In this document: one piece after another, positions 6,394-45,299 of the stretch
Layout of the letters: the number at the start of each line of letters is the position of its first letter
Numbering within the stretch: position 1 is the first letter of the stretch
From: Escherichia coli
GTDB taxonomy: Bacteria; Pseudomonadota; Gammaproteobacteria; Enterobacterales; Enterobacteriaceae
Direction: 5' to 3' (one strand)
Length of the DNA stretch: 64,000 nt
NCBI RefSeq assembly: GCF_030013595.1
Contig: NZ_CP122768.1
The notes under the pieces: model-generated
Database searches by the model: none
The model's input: only the letters and a program-made list of their open reading frames with translations
Told to the model about the DNA's origin: nothing
Program-made: the position numbers and the translations under genes

Positions 6394-7109
6394 TCAATGT
6401 ATTAATTATCGATGACGACGCAATGGTCGCGGAGCTGAATCGCCGATACGTAGCACAAATCCCAAGCTTTCAATGCTGTGGAACAGCCTCGACGCTGGAG
6501 AAAGCCAAAGAGATTATCTTCAATAGCGATACGCCTATCGACCTGATATTGCTCGATATCTATATGCAAAAAGAGAACGGGCTCGATTTACTGCCTGTCC
6601 TGCATAACGCGCGTTGCAAAAGTGATGTGATTGTCATCTCCTCCGCAGCCGATGCGGCAACCATTAAAGATTCGCTGCATTACGGTGTCGTGGATTACCT
6701 GATCAAACCCTTCCAGGCTTCCCGCTTTGAAGAGGCGCTCACCGGCTGGCGGCAAAAGAAAATGGCGCTGGAAAAACATCAGTATTATGACCAGGCCGAG
6801 CTTGATCAGCTAATCCACGGCAGCAGCTCCAACGAGCAGGATCCTCGTCGCTTGCCAAAAGGCTTAACGCCGCAGACGTTACGCACGCTGTGCCAGTGGA
6901 TTGACGCGCATCAGGACTATGAGTTTTCAACCGACGAGCTGGCTAACGAGGTTAACATTTCGCGTGTTTCCTGCCGTAAATACCTCATCTGGCTGGTCAA
7001 CTGCCACATCTTGTTCACCAGTATCCATTATGGCGTCACGGGGCGTCCGGTTTACCGTTACCGTATTCAGGCAGAACACTACTCACTGCTGAAACAATAT
7101 TGCCAATAA
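6390..7109 (+). CDS. dcuR: C4-dicarboxylate response regulator
   Basis: ORF track 239 aa; receiver domain (LIIDDD, LLDIYM) plus C-terminal DNA-binding domain; ATGA overlap with dcuS stop. Confidence 0.93.
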   Translation: MINVLIIDDDAMVAELNRRYVAQIPSFQCCGTASTLEKAKEIIFNSDTPIDLILLDIYMQKENGLDLLPVLHNARCKSDVIVISSAADAATIKDSLHYGVVDYLIKPFQASRFEEALTGWRQKKMALEKHQYYDQAELDQLIHGSSSNEQDPRRLPKGLTPQTLRTLCQWIDAHQDYEFSTDELANEVNISRVSCRKYLIWLVNCHILFTSIHYGVTGRPVYRYRIQAEHYSLLKQYCQ

Positions 7110-7161
7110 CGGATCGCTGGTTATCTGTAAGTAATAATTATTACCGTAATGCAAAATATTC

Positions 7162-7202
7162 CTGGCACAAGTTACATTCTTCATCAGTAAAACTTGTGCC
7201 AG
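7162..7202. repeat. Perfect 12-bp inverted repeat (ctggcacaagtt N17 aacttgtgccag) just downstream of dcuR
   Basis: Read directly; the right arm overlaps a TTGTG-N4-ATCAA motif at 7194..7207 resembling a CRP/FNR-type site. Function not established. Confidence 0.5.
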
Positions 7203-7679
7203 ATCAAATATAATTATCCCTCCATCATCGTTAAAAATTAATATCTCTTCAGATGAACGGTGTTTTTAATTTCAAAACGCTAACAAAAGTTAATTAACTA
7301 TTATGTCACCCGCATTATGTGTATTTTTACCCACAAATGGGTAGATCAGATTAATCTATAAACCTAATGATATCTGCCCTGAGAACAAAAAATAGACCGA
7401 TAAATATCAATAAGATAACAGCAAACAAAACATTAACATCTGCGCAGTACAAACTATAAACCCATCGCCAGAGAGTCATTCTCTCTGAAAAAGCCGCTTA
7501 TCACAGTGCATAAATTTGCCGCTGCTTTAATCAGCCAATATTCACTGTGAGGTATTTGCTAAAGCCGGTAACGACCAAACGGATATTTAGTCAGGCTCTG
7601 AAAACAGTTCATACAAAACAGAACGTGACTGTGATCTATTCAGCAAAAATTTAAATAGGATTATCGCGAGGGTTCACAC

Positions 7680-9020
7680 ATGTTATTTACTATCCAACTT
7701 ATCATAATACTGATATGTCTGTTTTATGGTGCCAGAAAGGGTGGTATCGCGCTGGGTTTATTAGGCGGTATCGGTCTGGTCATTCTGGTCTTCGTCTTCC
7801 ACCTTCAGCCAGGTAAACCACCGGTTGATGTCATGCTGGTTATCATTGCGGTGGTGGCGGCATCGGCGACCTTGCAAGCTTCGGGCGGTCTTGATGTCAT
7901 GCTGCAAATTGCCGAGAAGCTGCTGCGCCGCAACCCGAAATATGTCTCAATTGTCGCGCCGTTTGTGACCTGTACGCTGACCATTCTTTGCGGTACGGGT
8001 CATGTGGTTTACACCATTCTGCCGATCATCTACGACGTCGCTATTAAGAACAACATCCGTCCGGAACGCCCGATGGCGGCAAGTTCTATCGGTGCACAGA
8101 TGGGGATTATCGCCAGTCCGGTGTCGGTTGCAGTCGTGTCTCTGGTTGCGATGCTGGGTAATGTCACCTTTGATGGTCGCCATCTTGAGTTCCTCGACCT
8201 GCTAGCAATCACCATTCCATCGACGTTAATCGGTATCCTGGCGATCGGTATCTTCAGCTGGTTCCGCGGTAAAGATCTGGATAAAGACGAAGAGTTCCAG
8301 AAATTCATCTCCGTACCGGAAAACCGTGAGTATGTTTACGGTGATACCGCGACGCTGCTGGATAAAAAACTGCCGAAAAGCAACTGGCTTGCAATGTGGA
8401 TCTTCCTCGGGGCAATCGCTGTAGTCGCCCTTCTTGGTGCTGATTCGGACCTGCGTCCATCCTTCGGCGGCAAACCGCTGTCGATGGTACTGGTTATTCA
8501 GATGTTTATGCTGCTGACCGGGGCGCTGATTATTATCCTGACCAAAACCAATCCCGCGTCTATCTCAAAAAACGAAGTCTTCCGTTCCGGTATGATCGCC
8601 ATCGTGGCGGTGTACGGTATCGCATGGATGGCAGAAACCATGTTCGGTGCGCATATGTCTGAAATTCAGGGCGTACTGGGTGAAATGGTGAAAGAGTATC
8701 CGTGGGCCTATGCCATTGTTCTGCTGCTGGTTTCCAAGTTTGTAAACTCTCAGGCTGCGGCGCTGGCGGCGATTGTTCCGGTCGCGCTGGCGATCGGCGT
8801 TGATCCGGCATACATCGTGGCTTCAGCACCGGCTTGCTACGGTTATTACATCCTGCCGACTTATCCGAGCGATCTGGCAGCGATTCAGTTTGACCGTTCC
8901 GGCACCACCCACATCGGTCGCTTCGTCATCAACCACAGCTTTATTCTGCCGGGGTTGATTGGTGTGAGCGTATCGTGCGTCTTCGGCTGGATCTTCGCCG
9001 CGATGTACGGGTTCTTATAA
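7680..9020 (+). CDS. dcuB: Anaerobic C4-dicarboxylate:succinate antiporter
   Basis: ORF track 446 aa, ATG start; highly hydrophobic DcuA/DcuB family; preceded by a 570-bp AT-rich control region; fumB downstream. Confidence 0.93.
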
Positions 9021-9097
9021 ATGCACTTTGCGTGCCGCCCGTGACTACGCGGCACGCCATTTTCGAATAACAAATACAGAGTTACAGGCTGGAAGCT

Positions 9098-10744
9098 ATG
9101 TCAAACAAACCCTTTATCTACCAGGCACCTTTCCCGATGGGGAAAGACAATACCGAATACTATCTACTCACTTCCGATTACGTTAGCGTTGCCGACTTCG
9201 ACGGCGAAACCATTCTGAAAGTGGAACCAGAAGCCCTGACCCTGCTGGCGCAGCAAGCCTTTCACGACGCTTCTTTCATGCTCCGTCCGGCACACCAGAA
9301 ACAGGTTGCGGCTATTCTTCACGATCCAGAAGCCAGCGAAAACGACAAGTACGTGGCGCTGCAATTCTTAAGAAACTCCGAAATCGCCGCCAAAGGCGTG
9401 CTGCCGACCTGCCAGGATACCGGCACCGCAATCATCGTCGGTAAAAAAGGTCAGCGCGTGTGGACCGGCGGCGGTGATGAAGAAGCACTGTCGAAAGGCG
9501 TGTACAACACCTATATCGAAGATAACCTGCGCTACTCGCAAAACGCGGCGCTGGACATGTACAAAGAGGTCAACACCGGCACTAACCTGCCTGCGCAAAT
9601 CGACCTGTACGCGGTAGATGGCGATGAGTACAAATTCCTCTGTGTCGCTAAAGGCGGCGGCTCTGCCAACAAAACCTATCTCTACCAGGAAACCAAAGCC
9701 CTGCTGACTCCCGGCAAACTGAAAAACTTCCTCGTTGAGAAAATGCGTACCCTCGGTACTGCAGCCTGCCCGCCGTACCATATCGCGTTTGTGATTGGCG
9801 GTACGTCTGCGGAAACCAACCTGAAAACCGTCAAGTTAGCAAGCGCTCACTATTATGATGAACTGCCGACGGAAGGGAACGAACATGGTCAGGCGTTCCG
9901 CGATGTCCAACTGGAACAGGAACTGCTGGAAGAGGCCCAGAAACTCGGTCTTGGCGCGCAGTTTGGCGGTAAATACTTCGCGCACGACATTCGCGTTATC
10001 CGTCTGCCACGTCACGGCGCATCCTTCCCGGTAGGCATGGGAGTCTCCTGCTCCGCTGACCGTAACATTAAAGCGAAAATCAACCGCGAAGGTATCTGGA
10101 TCGAAAAACTGGAACACAATCCAGGCCAGTACATTCCACAAGAACTGCGTCAGGCCGGTGAAGGCGAAGCGGTGAAAGTCGACCTTAACCGCCCGATGAA
10201 AGAGATCCTCGCCCAGCTTTCGCAATATCCGGTTTCCACTCGTTTGTCGCTCACCGGCACCATTATTGTGGGTCGAGATATTGCACACGCCAAGCTGAAA
10301 GAGCTGATTGACTCCGGTAAAGAACTTCCGCAGTACATCAAAGATCACCCGATCTACTACGCGGGTCCGGCGAAAACGCCTGCCGGTTATCCATCAGGTT
10401 CACTTGGCCCAACCACCGCAGGTCGTATGGACTCCTACGTGGATCTGCTGCAATCCCACGGCGGCAGCATGATCATGCTGGCGAAAGGTAACCGCAGTCA
10501 GCAGGTTACCGACGCGTGTCATAAACATGGCGGCTTCTACCTCGGTAGTATCGGCGGTCCGGCGGCGGTACTGGCGCAGCAGAGCATCAAGCATCTGGAA
10601 TGCGTCGCTTATCCGGAGCTGGGTATGGAAGCTATCTGGAAAATCGAAGTAGAAGATTTCCCGGCGTTTATCCTGGTCGATGACAAAGGCAACGACTTCT
10701 TCCAGCAAATCGTCAACAAACAGTGCGCGAACTGCACTAAGTAA
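9098..10744 (+). CDS. fumB: Class I fumarate hydratase, anaerobic isozyme
   Basis: ORF track 548 aa; [13 protein letters not shown] start; Fe-S hydro-lyase family; called fumB over fumA from dcuB synteny. Confidence 0.93.
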
Positions 10745-11634: not shown

Positions 11635-12092
11635 TCAGGCTTTCACATCACTCACTGCACCGACCGGAATATCAGCATGAACAGGCTCGGGCGGTACTTT
11701 GCGATATTTATCCAGCAGATGGATCTGGATCCTGCGCAGCGTGCACCATTGAGGCGATAGAAACGGAAGTAGAGAATCAGCGTTACCATGAAAAACAGAG
11801 TCGGTAGAGCAATCATAATAAACTGCATACCTAATAGGGCTTGCGTAGACTGTTCAACATTCGGTACATAGCCAATCATCCCTAACACAACCGCAATGAA
11901 AAAAGCCGCAAAGGCTGAACCGCCCTTCACCACCATAGTCTGCACGGAGTAAGCGATGCTTTCACAGCGTACGTGCAGTTTATATTCACCGTAATCAACG
12001 GTATCTGCCACCATGATGACCTGTAATACCCAGAAAAGCGCCGTTCCCACATTCAGCAAGATACCCGCAATCACAATGAGGACGACGTTGTG
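11635..12092 (-). pseudogene. melB: melB 3' fragment (melibiose:Na+ symporter), separated from its 5' part by IS1 and carrying a 1-bp frameshift
   Basis: Minus-strand translation continues the melB N-terminal fragment across the IS1 target duplication (HNV then [13 protein letters not shown]...). At about 11741..11747 the frame shifts; the alternate frame gives [35 protein letters not shown] and stops at 11635..11637, matching the recalled MelB C-terminus. Confidence 0.8.
12084..12092. repeat. IS1 target site duplication, copy 1 (gacgttgtg)
   Basis: Identical 9-mer directly flanks both IS1 ends (12084..12092 and 12861..12869). Confidence 0.9.
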
Positions 12093-12107
12093 GGTAATGA
12101 CTCCAAC

Positions 12108-12611
12108 TTACTGATAGTGTTTTATGTTCAGATAATGCCCGATGACCTTGTCATGCAGCTCCACCGATTTTGAGAACGACAGTGACTTCCGTCCCAGCCT
12201 TGCCAGATGTTGTCTCAGATTCAGGTTATGCCGCTCAATGCGCTGAGTATAACGCTTGCTGATAACGTGCAGCTTTCCCTTCAGGCGTGATTCATACAGC
12301 GGCCAGCCATCCGTCATCCATACCACGACCTCAAAGGCCGACAGCAGGCTCAGAAGACGCTCCAGTGTGGCCAGAGTGCGTTCACCGAAGACGTGCGCCA
12401 CAACCGTCCTCCGCATCCTGTCATACGCGTAAAACAGCCAGCGCTGACGTGATTTAGCACCGACGTAGCCCCACTGTTCGTCCATTTCAGCGCAGACAAT
12501 CACATCACTGCCCGGTTGTATGCGCGAGGTTACCGACTGCGGCCTGAGTTTTTTAAGTGGCGGAAAATCGTGTTGAGGCCAACGCCAATAATGCGTGCAC
12601 TGGCGCGACAT
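12108..12611 (-). CDS. insB: IS1 transposase ORF InsB (expressed as InsAB' fusion by -1 frameshift)
   Basis: ORF track 167 aa ending ...[18 protein letters not shown], the recalled InsB C-terminus; the frameshift motif ttaaaaaactc lies on the minus strand at about 12546..12557. Confidence 0.9.
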
Positions 12612-12805
12612 CCGACGCCATTCATGGCCATATCAATGATTTTCTGGTGCGTACCGGGCTGAGAGGCGGCGTAAGTGAACTGTAGTTGCCATGTTTTACG
12701 GCAGTGAGAGCAGAGATAGCGCTGATGTCCGGCGGTGCTTTTGCCGTTACGCACCACCCCGTCAGTAGCTGAACAGGAGGGACAGCTGATAGAAACAGAA
12801 GCCAC
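12530..12805 (-). CDS. insA: IS1 InsA, transposition repressor / N-terminal part of transposase
   Basis: ORF track 91 aa [43 protein letters not shown]..., zinc-finger-like CxxC pairs; matches recalled InsA. Confidence 0.92.
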
Positions 12806-19282: not shown

Positions 19283-20044
19283 ATGAGGATTTGCAGCGAC
19301 CAACCTTGTATTGTTTTATTGACTGAAAAAGATGTCTGGATAAGGGTGAATGGGAAAGAACCTATTAGCCTTAAAGCTAACCATATGGCGTTATTAAATT
19401 GTGAAAATAATATTATCGACGTCTCCTCTCTTAATAACACTTTGGTTGCTCATATTAGTCACGACATCATCAAAGATTACCTCCGGTTTCTGAATAAAGA
19501 TCTCTCGCAAATACCAGTATGGCAACGTAGCGCTACGCCCATCCTCACTCTGCCATGCCTGACGCCAGACGTCTTTCGCGTTGCCGCGCAACACAGCATG
19601 ATGCCCGCTGAAACTGAGTCAGAAAAGGAACGAACACGTGCATTATTATTCACTGTGCTATCCCGTTTTCTCGACAGTAAAAAATTCCTTTCACTAATGA
19701 TGTATATGTTACGTAATTGTGTAAGTGACAGCGTTTATCAAATTATTGAAAGCGATATCCACAAAGACTGGAATCTTAGTATGGTAGCCAGTTGTTTATG
19801 TCTTAGCCCGAGTCTGTTAAAGAAAAAGCTGAAAAGCGAAAACACCAGTTATAGCCAAATAATCACCACCTGCCGCATGCGTTATGCCGTAAATGAATTA
19901 ATGATGGACGGTAAAAATATCTCTCAGGTATCACAGTCCTGCGGCTACAACAGTACGTCGTACTTTATTTCTGTCTTTAAAGACTTCTACGGTATGACGC
20001 CTCTGCATTATGTTAGTCAGCACAGAGAACGCACTGTCGCCTGA
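19283..20044 (+). CDS. adiY: AraC-family regulator of the arginine-dependent acid resistance genes
   Basis: ORF track 253 aa, ATG with AGGAG 8 bp upstream; low-GC gene; AraC-type HTH at the C-terminus; between adiA and adiC. Confidence 0.92.
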   Translation: MRICSDQPCIVLLTEKDVWIRVNGKEPISLKANHMALLNCENNIIDVSSLNNTLVAHISHDIIKDYLRFLNKDLSQIPVWQRSATPILTLPCLTPDVFRVAAQHSMMPAETESEKERTRALLFTVLSRFLDSKKFLSLMMYMLRNCVSDSVYQIIESDIHKDWNLSMVASCLCLSPSLLKKKLKSENTSYSQIITTCRMRYAVNELMMDGKNISQVSQSCGYNSTSYFISVFKDFYGMTPLHYVSQHRERTVA

Positions 20045-41137: not shown

Positions 41138-41558
41138 GCTTCGCCCGGCCACGCAGTACGATACCGACGCAGTTTACGCGCTGATTTGTGAGCTAAAACA
41201 GGCGGAGTTTGACCACCATGCGTTTCGCGTGGGGTTTAACGCCAATCTGCGCGATCCGAACATGCGCTACCATCTGGCGCTGCTGGATGGCGAAGTTGTC
41301 GGCATGATCGGCCTGCATTTGCAGTTTCATCTGCATCATGTCAACTGGATCGGCGAAATTCAGGAACTGGTGGTGATGCCGCAGGCGCGCGGTCTGAACG
41401 TCGGCAGCAAATTACTGGCATGGGCAGAAGAAGAAGCCCGCCAGGCCGGGGCCGAAATGACCGAGCTTTCCACCAACGTGAAGCGCCACGACGCGCACCG
41501 TTTTTACCTGCGTGAAGGCTACGAGCAGAGCCACTTCCGCTTCACCAAGGCGCTGTAA
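41124..41558 (+). CDS. phnO: Aminoalkylphosphonate N-acetyltransferase PhnO (GNAT)
   Basis: ORF track 144 aa; overlaps the phnN 3' end. Confidence 0.92.
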
Positions 41559-41559
41559 C

Positions 41560-42318
41560 ATGAGCCTGACCCTCACACTTACTGGCACTGGCGGCGCACA
41601 GGGCGTTCCCGCATGGGGCTGTGAGTGCGTGGCCTGCGTCAGAGCGCGGCGCTCACCGCAGTATCGCCGCCAGCCATGCAGCGGCGTCGTGAAGTTTAAC
41701 GACGCGATCACCCTGATCGACGCCGGGCTGCACGATCTCGCCGATCGCTGGTCGCCCGGATCGTTCCAGCAGTTTTTGCTGACGCACTACCATATGGATC
41801 ACGTGCAGGGGCTGTTTCCGCTGCGCTGGGGCGTGGGCGATTCGATCCCGATCTACGGCCCGCCGGATGAACAGGGCTGCGACGATCTGTTTAAACATCC
41901 GGGCCAGCTTGATTTCAGCCACACGATGGAACCGTTTGTGGTGTTTGATTTACAGGGGTTACAGGTCACGCCCCTGCCGCTCAACCACTCAAAACTGACC
42001 TTCGGTTATCTGCTGGAAACGGCACATAGCCGGGTGGCGTGGCTGTCTGACACCGCAGGCCTACCGGAAAAAACGCTGAAATTTTTACGCAATAATCAAC
42101 CGCAGGTGATGGTGATTGATTGCAGCCACCCACCGCGCGAGGATGCACCGCGTAATCACTGTGATTTAAATACCGTGCTTGCGCTGAATGAAGTTATCCG
42201 CTCGCCGCGCGTGGTTCTGACCCATATCAGCCATCAGTTTGATGCGTGGCTGATGGAGAACTTACTGCCGTCAGGGTTTGAGGCGGGGTTTGATGGGATG
42301 GAGATTGGGGTGGCGTGA
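41560..42318 (+). CDS. phnP: PhnP, metallo-beta-lactamase-fold cyclic phosphodiesterase
   Basis: ORF track 41512..42318; the ATG at 41560 ([20 protein letters not shown]) gives 252 aa; HxHxDH motif (THYHMDH). Confidence 0.92.
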
Positions 42319-42345
42319 GGGAAAATACCCGCGCCGGCCCCTATA

Positions 42346-42675
42346 TCAACGCCCATACTCATCTTCCATTCTCCGCTCTTCATCCTCCAGTTGCCGACGC
42401 TCCTGATCAAGCTGGCGCTGGCGATCGTCCAGCTGCCTGCGGCGATCTTCAAACTGACGGCGGCGGTCGTCATATTGTCTGCGCCGATCGTCGCTCACTT
42501 CACGCTGCCAGCCGTCGTCGTGCGAATCTTCATAGTCTCGCCCACGGTCAGGGTTATAAGCATCGTTAATCGCCTGCTGAATATTGCCAATGGTGTCGTC
42601 GATAATATCGGCCTGGGCCGGAACGGTAGACAGCGTGAGCAGGGTGAATAAAAGAAATAGCGGAAAGCGTTTCAT
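42346..42675 (-). CDS. yjdP: Small secreted protein with tandem charged DDRRRQ-type repeats
   Basis: ORF track 109 aa, ATG start; signal peptide MKRFPLFLLFTLLTLSTVPAQA, then about six 8-residue acidic/basic repeats (DDRRRQYD, DRRRQFED, ...). Confidence 0.85.
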   Translation of the reverse strand: MKRFPLFLLFTLLTLSTVPAQADIIDDTIGNIQQAINDAYNPDRGRDYEDSHDDGWQREVSDDRRRQYDDRRRQFEDRRRQLDDRQRQLDQERRQLEDEERRMEDEYGR

Positions 42676-42743
42676 TAGCCAACCTCAAAAAGAAACTCTA
42701 TCCACATTAGTCATTACTCATCCATGCAAGTAGTGGACGAATC

Positions 42744-43061
42744 TCAATTTCTCCGCTGCTCTATTGCCGTAATCGCCTCCACGCGTTGTTGATGACGACC
42801 GCCTTCGTACTGCGCGCCCAGCCACGCATCCACAATCATTTTTGCCAGTTCGAGGCCAACCACTCGTGAACCAAAAGCCAGTGCAACTTCACTGGCGTAA
42901 TGCGGATAATCAGTGCGCTCTGACGGCCTGGTTTCTTTATCAATCCCCTCACTCATTGACCATGAATAAAAGGCTGGCACAGCAACGCGGAATCCTGCGG
43001 TGCCAGCGACATGACCGCCCATTGCTCCGGTACGTTTTTTAATAAAAAACACCGGTTGCAT
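42744..43061 (-). pseudogene. rpiB: rpiB-like remnant (ribose-5-phosphate isomerase B family), shortened and rearranged
   Basis: ORF track 105 aa; segments SERTDYPHYAS-VALA and FGSRVVGLELAKMIVDAWLGAQYEGGRHQQRVEAITAIEQRRN match recalled E. coli RpiB (149 aa) but are joined with about 50 residues missing, and the N-terminal 38 residues do not align. Only about 250 bp separate it from the yjcS start. Confidence 0.5.
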
Positions 43062-43313
43062 TGATTAATTGTGCTCAGTATTTGCCGAAGTACAATATAT
43101 ATAATAAATATATAAAACACCTCATATTATTTACAGAAATAATGAATTCGCGTAATTTTCCCTCTTCAGCACAAATGCCTAATAAAATGGCGCGTTCAGC
43201 TCACACTTCTACTTATTAAAGTCGCAATTTCCCAATTATGATAACGCCAGCTTCAAATGACGTATTTTGCATGGGTTACATATTTACGACATAAATGATA
43301 AATGGAGATTTAT

Positions 43314-45299
43314 ATGAATAACTCTCGGTTATTCCGTTTGAGCAGGATTGTTATTGCGTTAACTGCCGCCAGCAGCATGATGGTAAATACCGCTAATGCG
43401 AAAGAGGAAGCGAAAGCCGCCACTCAATATACCCAACAGGTTAATCAGAATTACGCCAAATCATTACCGTTTAGCGATCGTCAGGATTTTGACGATGCCC
43501 AGCGTGGATTTATCGCCCCGCTGCTGGATGAAGGTATTCTGCGTGATGCTAACGGCAAAGTTTACTACCGCGCAGACGATTACAAATTTGATATTAATGC
43601 CGCTGCGCCGGAAACCGTAAACCCCAGCCTGTGGCGTCAGTCGCAAATCAACGGTATTTCTGGCCTGTTCAAAGTCACCGATAAAATGTATCAGGTGCGC
43701 GGCCAGGATATCTCTAACATTACGTTCGTTGAGGGCGAGAAAGGCATTATTGTTATCGACCCGCTGGTGACGCCGCCTGCCGCAAAAGCCGCACTTGATC
43801 TTTACTTCCAGCATCGTCCGCAAAAACCGATTGTTGCTGTTATTTACACCCACAGCCACGCCGACCATTATGGCGGTGTGAAAGGCATTATCTCTGAAGC
43901 GGATGTTAAATCCGGCAAAGTGCAGGTGATCGCTCCGGCAGGCTTTATGGACGAAGCCATCAGCGAAAACGTGCTGGCGGGTAACATCATGAGCCGCCGT
44001 GCGCTCTACTCTTACGGTCTGTTACTGCCGCACAACGCGCAAGGCAACGTGGGCAACGGCCTGGGCGTGACGCTGGCAACCGGCGACCCGAGCATTATTG
44101 CACCGACTAAAACTATCGTCAGAACTGGCGAGAAGATGATTATCGACGGCCTGGAATTTGACTTCCTGATGACTCCGGGTAGCGAAGCGCCAGCCGAAAT
44201 GCACTTCTATATTCCGGCCCTGAAAGCCCTGTGTACCGCCGAGAACGCCACGCATACCCTGCACAACTTCTACACTCTGCGCGGCGCGAAAACCCGCGAT
44301 ACCAGCAAGTGGACCGAGTACCTGAACGAAACGCTGGATATGTGGGGTAACGACGCGGAAGTACTGTTTATGCCGCACACCTGGCCGGTCTGGGGCAATA
44401 AGCATATCAATGATTATATTGGTAAATATCGCGATACCATCAAGTACATTCACGACCAGACCCTGCACCTGGCGAACCAGGGCTACACCATGAATGAAAT
44501 CGGCGACATGATTAAGCTGCCGCCTGCGCTTGCCAATAACTGGGCCAGCCGCGGCTATTACGGTTCTGTCAGCCACAACGCCCGCGCGGTGTATAACTTC
44601 TATCTTGGCTATTACGACGGTAACCCGGCTAACCTGCATCCGTATGGTCAGGTGGAGATGGGTAAACGTTACGTGCAGGCGCTGGGCGGTTCTGCCCGTG
44701 TCATCAACCTGGCGCAAGAAGCGAACAAGCAAGGTGATTACCGCTGGTCGGCAGAACTGCTGAAACAGGTGATTGCCGCCAACCCTGGTGACCAGGTCGC
44801 GAAGAATCTGCAAGCGAATAACTTTGAACAGCTGGGCTATCAGGCCGAGTCCGCCACCTGGCGCGGTTTCTACCTGACCGGCGCGAAAGAGCTGCGCGAA
44901 GGGGTACATAAGTTCAGCCACAGCTCCACCGGTTCCCCGGACACCCTTCGCGGGATGTCGGTCGAAATGCTATTCGACTTTATGGCCGTTCGCCTCGATA
45001 GCGCGAAAGCCGCAGGTAAGAATATCAGCCTGAACTTCAATATGAGCAACGGCGATAACCTCAACCTGACGCTGAACGATAGCGTGCTTAACTACCGTAA
45101 AACGCTGCAACCTGAAGCCAACGCCTCTTTCTACATCAGCCGTGAAGATCTTCACGCCGTGCTGACCGGACAAGCCAAAATGGCGGATCTGGTAAAAGCG
45201 AAGAAAGCCAAAATTATTGGCAATGGCGCGAAACTGGAAGAAATTATTGCCTGTCTGGATAATTTCGATTTGTGGGTGAATATCGTAACCCCAAATTAA
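43314..45299 (+). CDS. yjcS: Secreted metallo-beta-lactamase-fold alkyl/aryl sulfatase-like protein
   Basis: ORF track 43302..45299; the ATG at 43314 (MNNSRLFRL) has GGAG 6 bp upstream; signal peptide; HxHxDH motif ([10 protein letters not shown]); about 661 aa. Confidence 0.9.

Follow-up and report, generated by a model that had tools for sequence, protein, structure and literature searches.

The D-allose locus of Escherichia coli K-12, rpiB-alsRBACEK, has been described by Kim et al. 1997 and Poulsen et al. 1999 (as cited in PMC2808357). E. coli W lacks the als genes and does not use D-allose (PMC3032704), and EAEC 042 shows a 'complete absence' of rpiB, rpiR and alsBACEK and likewise does not use the sugar (PMC2808357). 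In EHEC O157:H7, the island OI167 consists of lmvK/lmvR and lmuKAIZYX and includes a D-lyxose/mannose isomerase (PMC10128022). For the RpiB enzyme of E. coli, Cys66 is the catalytic base and His99 serves in ring opening, with the H99N substitution losing 26-fold in kcat; Asp10 and His11 are the residues homologous to RpiB Asp9 and His10 (PMC4783025). Here we analyse a 64,000-nt stretch of E. coli DNA from contig NZ_CP122768.1 (hereafter, the window), in which the spacer between yjdP and yjcS is very probably a fixed deletion allele of rpiB-alsRBACEK that arose once, within a diverged als allele, and was spread by recombination.

From the window sequence and the PGAP annotation, the yjdP-yjcS spacer measures 638 bp, in line with the roughly 640 bp given in an earlier note on this DNA. 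The two genes lie 7,270 bp apart in K-12 MG1655, where rpiB is annotated on the minus strand and alsR-alsBACEK on the plus strand. The K-12 gene order given in the note (yjdP, rpiB, alsR, alsB, alsA, alsC, alsE, alsK, yjcS) agrees with that annotation. The surroundings are collinear, with phnN, phnO, phnP and yjdP on the left and yjcS, ytcA and mdtN on the right, and strain 2012C-4221 is 100% identical to the window across the 1,055 bp tested. The note had also proposed a comparison with B-lineage genomes: BL21(DE3) is als+ and arranged like K-12, so the B lineage resembles K-12 and not the window. Within the left flank, phnN, phnO and phnP are seemingly intact in the window. Elsewhere, phnO is annotated as frameshifted in O157:H7 strain 2571 (L003:10724-11159) and phnE as frameshifted in K-12 (L002:2968-3755), the latter being the well-known phn defect of K-12.

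Table 1. Features of the yjdP-yjcS spacer and its flanks in window coordinates, with the K-12 segments onto which they map.
Feature	Window	Strand	K-12	Remarks
yjdP	42346..42675	-		Conserved left flank, common to all alleles; PGAP; 98.3% identity to K-12
yjdP-yjcS spacer	42676..43313			638 bp
105-codon ORF	42744..43061	-		Sole sizeable ORF in spacer; RefSeq WP_064225838.1, 'RpiB/LacA/LacB family sugar-phosphate isomerase'
rpiB codons 105-149 and stop codon	42744..42881	-		137/138 nt as K-12; single difference synonymous
Junction 1	42872..42881			One copy of a 10-bp near-repeat kept
rpiB codons ~28-51 (ORF codons 37-60)	42882..42953	-		11/72 nt differ from K-12
Junction 2	42950..42955			rpiB codon ~28-29 joined ~15 nt before alsK stop codon
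alsK last ~15 nt, stop relic and terminator hairpin	42954..43011	+		Stop relic TGA at 42963-42965; ~70-77% identity to als+ alleles
alsK terminator hairpin arms	42973-42980 and 43000-43007			
78-bp scar-only segment	43012..43089			Holds ORF start and ORF codons 1-17
yjcS upstream region	43090..43313	+		Common to all alleles; first ~65 bp (to ~43155) strongly allele-specific, remainder ~98% as K-12
yjcS (alkyl sulfatase)	43314..45299	+		Conserved right flank; PGAP start 43314
Mapped segment	42346-42881		12001-12536	98.3% identity
Mapped segment	42872-42951		12686-12765	87.5% identity
Mapped segment	42960-43011		19323-19374	77% identity
Mapped segment	43090-43400		19376-19687	93.6% identity

When the spacer is mapped piecewise and base by base onto K-12, it resolves into two rpiB fragments on the minus strand and, bordering the shared upstream region of yjcS on its left, the alsK stop and terminator on the plus strand, all in the original order and orientation (Table 1). 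Since fragments of both ends of the rpiB-als interval are present, the spacer derives from an als+ state, and the deletion scar that the earlier note had suspected is borne out by these remnants. The 3′ fragment of rpiB is identical to K-12 at 138/138 positions in a second scar haplotype. The 5′ fragment carries six amino-acid changes relative to K-12 in the window copy, and scar-specific nonsynonymous changes fall at conserved RpiB residues (G34E/D and W36R). The stem of the alsK terminator hairpin is retained through a paired T>C / A>G change. The 78-bp segment to its right is missing from both the K-12-type and the O157-type alleles and has no copy elsewhere in E. coli genomes.

Two junctions account for what is missing, and short direct repeats, which the note had suggested looking for at the deletion points, are clear at one of them. 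At junction 1, K-12 carries CAAAAGCCAG at 12527-12536 and CAACAGCCAG at 12686-12695, a 10-bp near-repeat matching at 9/10 positions and spaced 159 bp apart. The 159 bp lost here include Cys66, Thr68, His99 and Asn100 and amount to exactly 53 codons, so that the reading frame is kept. Junction 2 shows microhomology of at most 3-4 bp, with the exact breakpoint blurred by divergence of the surrounding core, and removes ~6.55 kb of the K-12 sequence: rpiB codons 1-27, the divergent rpiB/alsR promoter region, alsR, alsB, alsA, alsC, alsE and nearly all of alsK. An IS-mediated deletion was considered and dropped, as a repeat element was found at neither junction: the core with its 78-bp segment is a single-copy sequence (median 1, maximum 2 places per genome) confined to this locus, and an Rfam scan of 42300-43400 at E <= 1 returned zero matches.

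A terminator consensus scan of the locus returned a single terminator-like hairpin, which lies exactly at junction 1 (42877-42896, minus strand, GCCAGTG-AAGTTG-CACTGGC followed by TTTTGG). Its palindrome already belongs to rpiB; the 159-bp deletion placed the T-run beside it. The resulting hairpin is probably incidental, or the palindrome may have promoted slippage.

The scar is not peculiar to one strain. Among 5,426 complete E. coli genomes, 3,380 (62%) are als+ as scored by the presence of alsK, 1,568-1,569 (29%) carry the scar and 411 (7.6%) carry the O157-type island OI167 with its D-lyxose/mannose isomerase, the three alleles together making up 98.8% of the set. BL21(DE3), 536, UTI89 and ST131 strains are als+.

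The other occupants of the slot have features of their own. In O157:H7 strain 2571 (L003:12394-21544), the OI167 slot holds a hybrid histidine kinase, an ABC transporter, D-lyxose/mannose isomerase, an aldolase, a kinase and a response regulator. The right boundary is equal in all three alleles (about window 43090-43094), and the motif GAATCTCAATT is found near window 42740-42750 in every allele; its TCA is the rpiB stop codon in the als-type allele and lies at the end of the annotated histidine-kinase gene in the OI167 allele. Escherichia sp. MOD1-EC7003 (L007:9634-10001) has a 5′ fragment of phnO (equivalent to window 41165-41296) joined, 13 bp away, to the shared upstream region of yjcS. 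The join lies at GAAGTGAAAG, a motif also present at the right end of the OI167 allele, suggesting that this is a fourth state, derived from an OI167-type allele by a more extensive deletion that took phnP and yjdP with it. Lesions are also seen within als operons (NZ_CP038791.1, NZ_CP142708.1): PF9285 has IS1 inside alsK, and in T28R nothing of alsK is left beyond its first 90 bp, both independent of the scar. Beyond Escherichia, a Pluralibacter MAG combines yjdP, an rpiB-like 3′ part and OI167-like genes (L027:562-1195 and 6800-9634), and a Citrobacter sp. has OI167-like genes upstream of yjcS (L019:5230-8948). The yjdP-yjcS slot seems to act as a hotspot for cassettes of sugar-utilisation genes throughout the Enterobacteriaceae.

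Both junctions are common to 9/9 aligned scar copies, from which it follows that the scar arose once. The eight complete scar genomes have identical junctions and zero indels across 971 bp, while L073, a third haplotype encoding a 74-aa form, has the same two junctions plus a 1-bp deletion that causes a frameshift; since then the scar has split into at least three haplotypes. On both sides, to the left as far as junction 1 and to the right from about 43155 onward, the sequence is 98-100% identical to als+ E. coli, and the 274-bp core in between (42882-43155) is diverged by 12-30%, an estimate based only on segments of 62-72 bp. The 5′ piece of rpiB differs from K-12 and E. whittamii at 11/72 nt and from a divergent Escherichia (L009) at 8/72, and the alsK-tail/hairpin piece differs from every als+ allele at 16-19/62 nt, compared with 2-11/62 among the als+ alleles themselves, including two sister-species alleles. 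The mosaic rpiB that the note had offered as a possibility holds in one sense: compared with rpiB of present-day E. coli, the 3′ 138 bp show 99-100% identity and the 5′ fragment has 11/72 differing nucleotides.

The same scar could have originated recently within E. coli from a K-12-like als operon, its core having diverged by fast neutral decay; several core differences are indeed scar-specific nonsynonymous changes at conserved RpiB residues, as decay predicts, and the compared segments are short. We nevertheless consider a recent origin improbable. Scar haplotypes differ from one another by only ~4% in the core, against 15% (rpiB piece) and 26-31% (hairpin piece) from all E. coli als alleles, distances that exceed those of K-12 to the alleles of its sister species (L008 and L009), and no two alsK alleles of E. 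coli fall below 95% identity. In addition, the core has states in common with L009 (CGC at codon 40 and Glu49, the Glu in 'ASEVA'), and the paired change in the hairpin stem is compensatory. This pair hints either at divergence while the hairpin was still a working terminator or at residual function, and we count it against our main reading.

A progenitor, an als+ allele with the 78-bp segment, was not found in the fetched outgroups or in metagenome contigs, which also counts against our main reading. A short-word blastn search for the 78-bp segment and the hairpin in all fetched outgroup loci gave zero matches. When metagenome contigs were scanned for an intact als allele with a scar-type terminator (CGTTTTTTN{15,45}GGCACAGCAACGC), 11 matches were returned, none resembling the scar, als or yjcS; these are chance matches. 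A YjcS scan of genome contigs from several Escherichia lineages and other Enterobacteriaceae, in which outgroup sampling is incomplete (E. albertii, E. fergusonii, E. marmotae and the E. coli representative fall outside the set), likewise contained the scar or a scar-like als allele in none.

In the history that we favour, a deletion allele of diverged origin, an als+ ancestor would have lost ~6.55 kb by an illegitimate join of rpiB codon ~28 to a point ~15 nt before the alsK stop. Another 159 bp would also have gone from inside the remaining rpiB, between the two 10-bp near-repeats, the two deletions being placed in this order only provisionally. The survivors would be the two pieces of rpiB, the terminator hairpin of alsK and the 78 bp specific to this allele. 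By then, the als allele involved would already have diverged from that of present als+ E. coli, so that the event could have fallen either ahead of the species' own diversification or within a sister lineage. The deletion allele would then have persisted, and homologous recombination in the conserved flanks, yjdP/phn on one side and yjcS on the other, would have carried it from lineage to lineage. Such recombination would homogenise the flanks up to the first point of heterology, and would thus explain the contrast between sequence identical to that of als+ strains as far as junction 1 and a core that is 12-30% diverged.

A bolder extension of this history, which we regard as unlikely, is that the scar is an ancient allele that predates the radiation of E. 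coli or came in by introgression from a sister Escherichia, and has been kept beside als+ and OI167 as a long-lived and possibly balanced three-way polymorphism in sugar use, with the 274-bp core as its fossil record. In a rarer variant of this idea, the retained hairpin and the 3′ end of rpiB would have been kept for the expression of yjdP or yjcS.

The spacer contains the 105-codon ORF reported in the earlier note, and its composition was largely as described there. ORF residues 61-105 are identical to K-12 RpiB 105-149, so the C-terminal match stands, although it spans 45 residues rather than 43. The internal segment SERTDYPHYAS-VALA lies in the alignment of ORF residues 38-62 with RpiB 29-53; the roughly 50 residues said to be missing between the two matches correspond to the 53 codons of junction 1. 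As noted before, the N-terminus does not align: residues 1-36 have no RpiB counterpart and are the antisense of the alsK tail, the terminator and part of the 78-bp segment. The ORF thus owes its existence solely to an in-frame loss of 159 bp and to 36 further codons that chance has left open through the alsK-terminator antisense and the 78-bp segment. Descent from rpiB is clear from the 137/138 nt of codons 105-149, the 61/72 nt of codons 28-51 and the match of ORF residues 59-105 to PDB 1NN4 (E = 2e-32); the first and last of these exclude a chance resemblance.

Despite this descent, the enzyme's active site is gone. Cys66, Thr68 and His99 fall inside the gap (RpiB ~53 to 105), and the N-terminal strand and loop bearing Asp9 and His10 are missing with RpiB residues 1-27. 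On the NCBIfam models, the ORF scores below every cutoff (TIGR01120, 77.2 against 138.65 bits; TIGR00689, 61.5 against 88.3; NF004051, 51.2 against 135), compared with 255.7, 211.1 and 202.9 for K-12 RpiB, and its match to Pfam PF02502 is confined to model positions 102-138 of 138. A full-length gene distinct from and unrelated to rpiB, which would have spoken against the note's reading, is contradicted by an ORF made of rpiB fragments with the catalytic residues lost.

Could the ORF nonetheless encode a functional small protein, in which the C-terminal helices of RpiB and a de novo N-terminus are under selection to modulate RpiA/RpiB-type oligomers or for some other role? It is intact (318 bp) in 8/8 fetched complete genomes, which counts against a dead ORF; searching public proteins with the scar-specific N-terminal part recovers a main cluster of 912 members; the last 45 residues of the protein do not vary; and PGAP calls a CDS. 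Set against this, codons 1-60 have eight variable sites in the eight complete genomes, six of them nonsynonymous, at a variant density (~4%) to be compared with 5-7% in yjdP and in the non-coding DNA upstream of yjcS. The public versions include multiple, independently damaged ones. One form ends at 51 aa through a nonsense change (14 member sequences), and at least 24 contigs carry the 74-aa frameshift form; others have lost 5 or 10 codons in frame, are frameshifted at the C-terminus or have had the N-terminus replaced. No Shine-Dalgarno sequence was found before the ATG (43062-43080 reads ACTGAGCACAATTAATCAA on the coding strand), and a promoter consensus scan gave one promoter-like site, against a mean of 2.1 in shuffled sequence, and none upstream of the ORF on its own strand. 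The catalytic residues, moreover, are missing. The 3′ 138 bp of rpiB, with only one variable site, could be read as constrained, but we attribute this invariance to identity to, and exchange by recombination with, als+ strains, in which the stretch is coding.

We therefore rejected a functional small protein, on the substitution pattern and the broken variants, as very unlikely. With mostly nonsynonymous changes in codons 1-60, and with nonsense, frameshift and in-frame-deletion variants, the ORF shows no constraint. Together with the scores below cutoff, these observations indicate that the ORF, judged from its sequence, is a pseudogene that RefSeq annotates as a protein, decaying yet open in most carriers. 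In every scar genome inspected, PGAP calls the fragment an intact CDS (WP_064225838.1, WP_001183282.1, WP_001183287.1). Naming it an isomerase is likely a systematic mis-annotation of a pseudogene.

That the compact locus is ancestral, with K-12 having gained rpiB-als and O157 having gained OI167 by insertion, has almost no probability left: an island-free yjdP-yjcS spacing of ~300 bp in Kluyvera and a slot that accepts different sugar islands speak for it, but two rpiB fragments and the alsK stop and terminator, in als-operon order, would be impossible in an empty site, and E. whittamii and the divergent Escherichia L009, both of them sister lineages, are als+. The spacer thus holds rpiB and alsK remnants between its flanks, which excludes the ancestral state without allose genes that the note had offered beside a deletion. 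E. whittamii (L008) and L009 have the K-12-like order at 93% and 91% identity, and Escherichia lineage L066 carries OI167. In Kluyvera (L013:9365-10001 and L014:9397-10001), the phn operon, yjdP and yjcS are collinear. Since Kluyvera is island-free and the outgroups are varied, the slot varies across the family, and its deeper ancestral state may have been empty. The Kluyvera spacer also has a palindromic motif, GGAGGAATCTCAATTCCTCC, that resembles the surroundings of the E. coli rpiB stop codon (window ~42735-42760).

The scar is a common presence/absence polymorphism, and als loss, as well as rpiB loss in EAEC 042, has already been published. With the scar in ~29% of genomes, als absence on record and a dead ORF, the finding is an ordinary one and its biological significance small. 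Scar carriers should be unable to use D-allose and should lack RpiB as a back-up for RpiA; the allele would explain why about three in ten E. coli strains, probably including that of the window, are without D-allose growth or this back-up. For annotation the scar has some practical bearing, as RefSeq names the 105-aa fragment an RpiB/LacA/LacB family isomerase in ~1,500 complete genomes. Stripped of the catalytic residues and scoring under the family cutoffs, the fragment should not enter metabolic reconstructions as an rpiB. The diverged core beside near-identical flanks is a tidy example of how a deletion allele may be carried through a species by flank recombination. The remaining curiosity, mildly interesting, is the age and source of that core, which points to an old or imported allele.

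Compared with the known systems, the scar most closely resembles the rpiB-als locus of K-12, with which it has in common the yjdP-yjcS slot, the 99-100% identical 3′ 138 bp of rpiB and a recognisable alsK stop and terminator. It differs from that locus in lacking ~6.7 kb through two deletions, so that zero als genes survive and the rpiB remnant is without codons 1-27 and 53 internal codons, including that of the catalytic Cys66, and in having a strongly diverged core and 78 additional bp. Like the scar, E. coli W and EAEC 042 are als-negative, a likeness drawn from reported gene absence, as the passages reporting it describe no rpiB or alsK remnant; the scar is the common als-negative form, at 29% of complete genomes. 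OI167 can take the place of the scar in this slot and ends at the same right boundary, but its gene content is entirely different and it has nothing in common with the scar core. Finally, the ORF descends from the rpiB gene of the RpiB/LacA/LacB family (PF02502; PDB 1NN4, 2VVR). Unlike the enzymes of this family, it keeps only ~70 of 149 residues, is without the catalytic residues and scores below curated thresholds; it is a fragment of the family and not a member enzyme.
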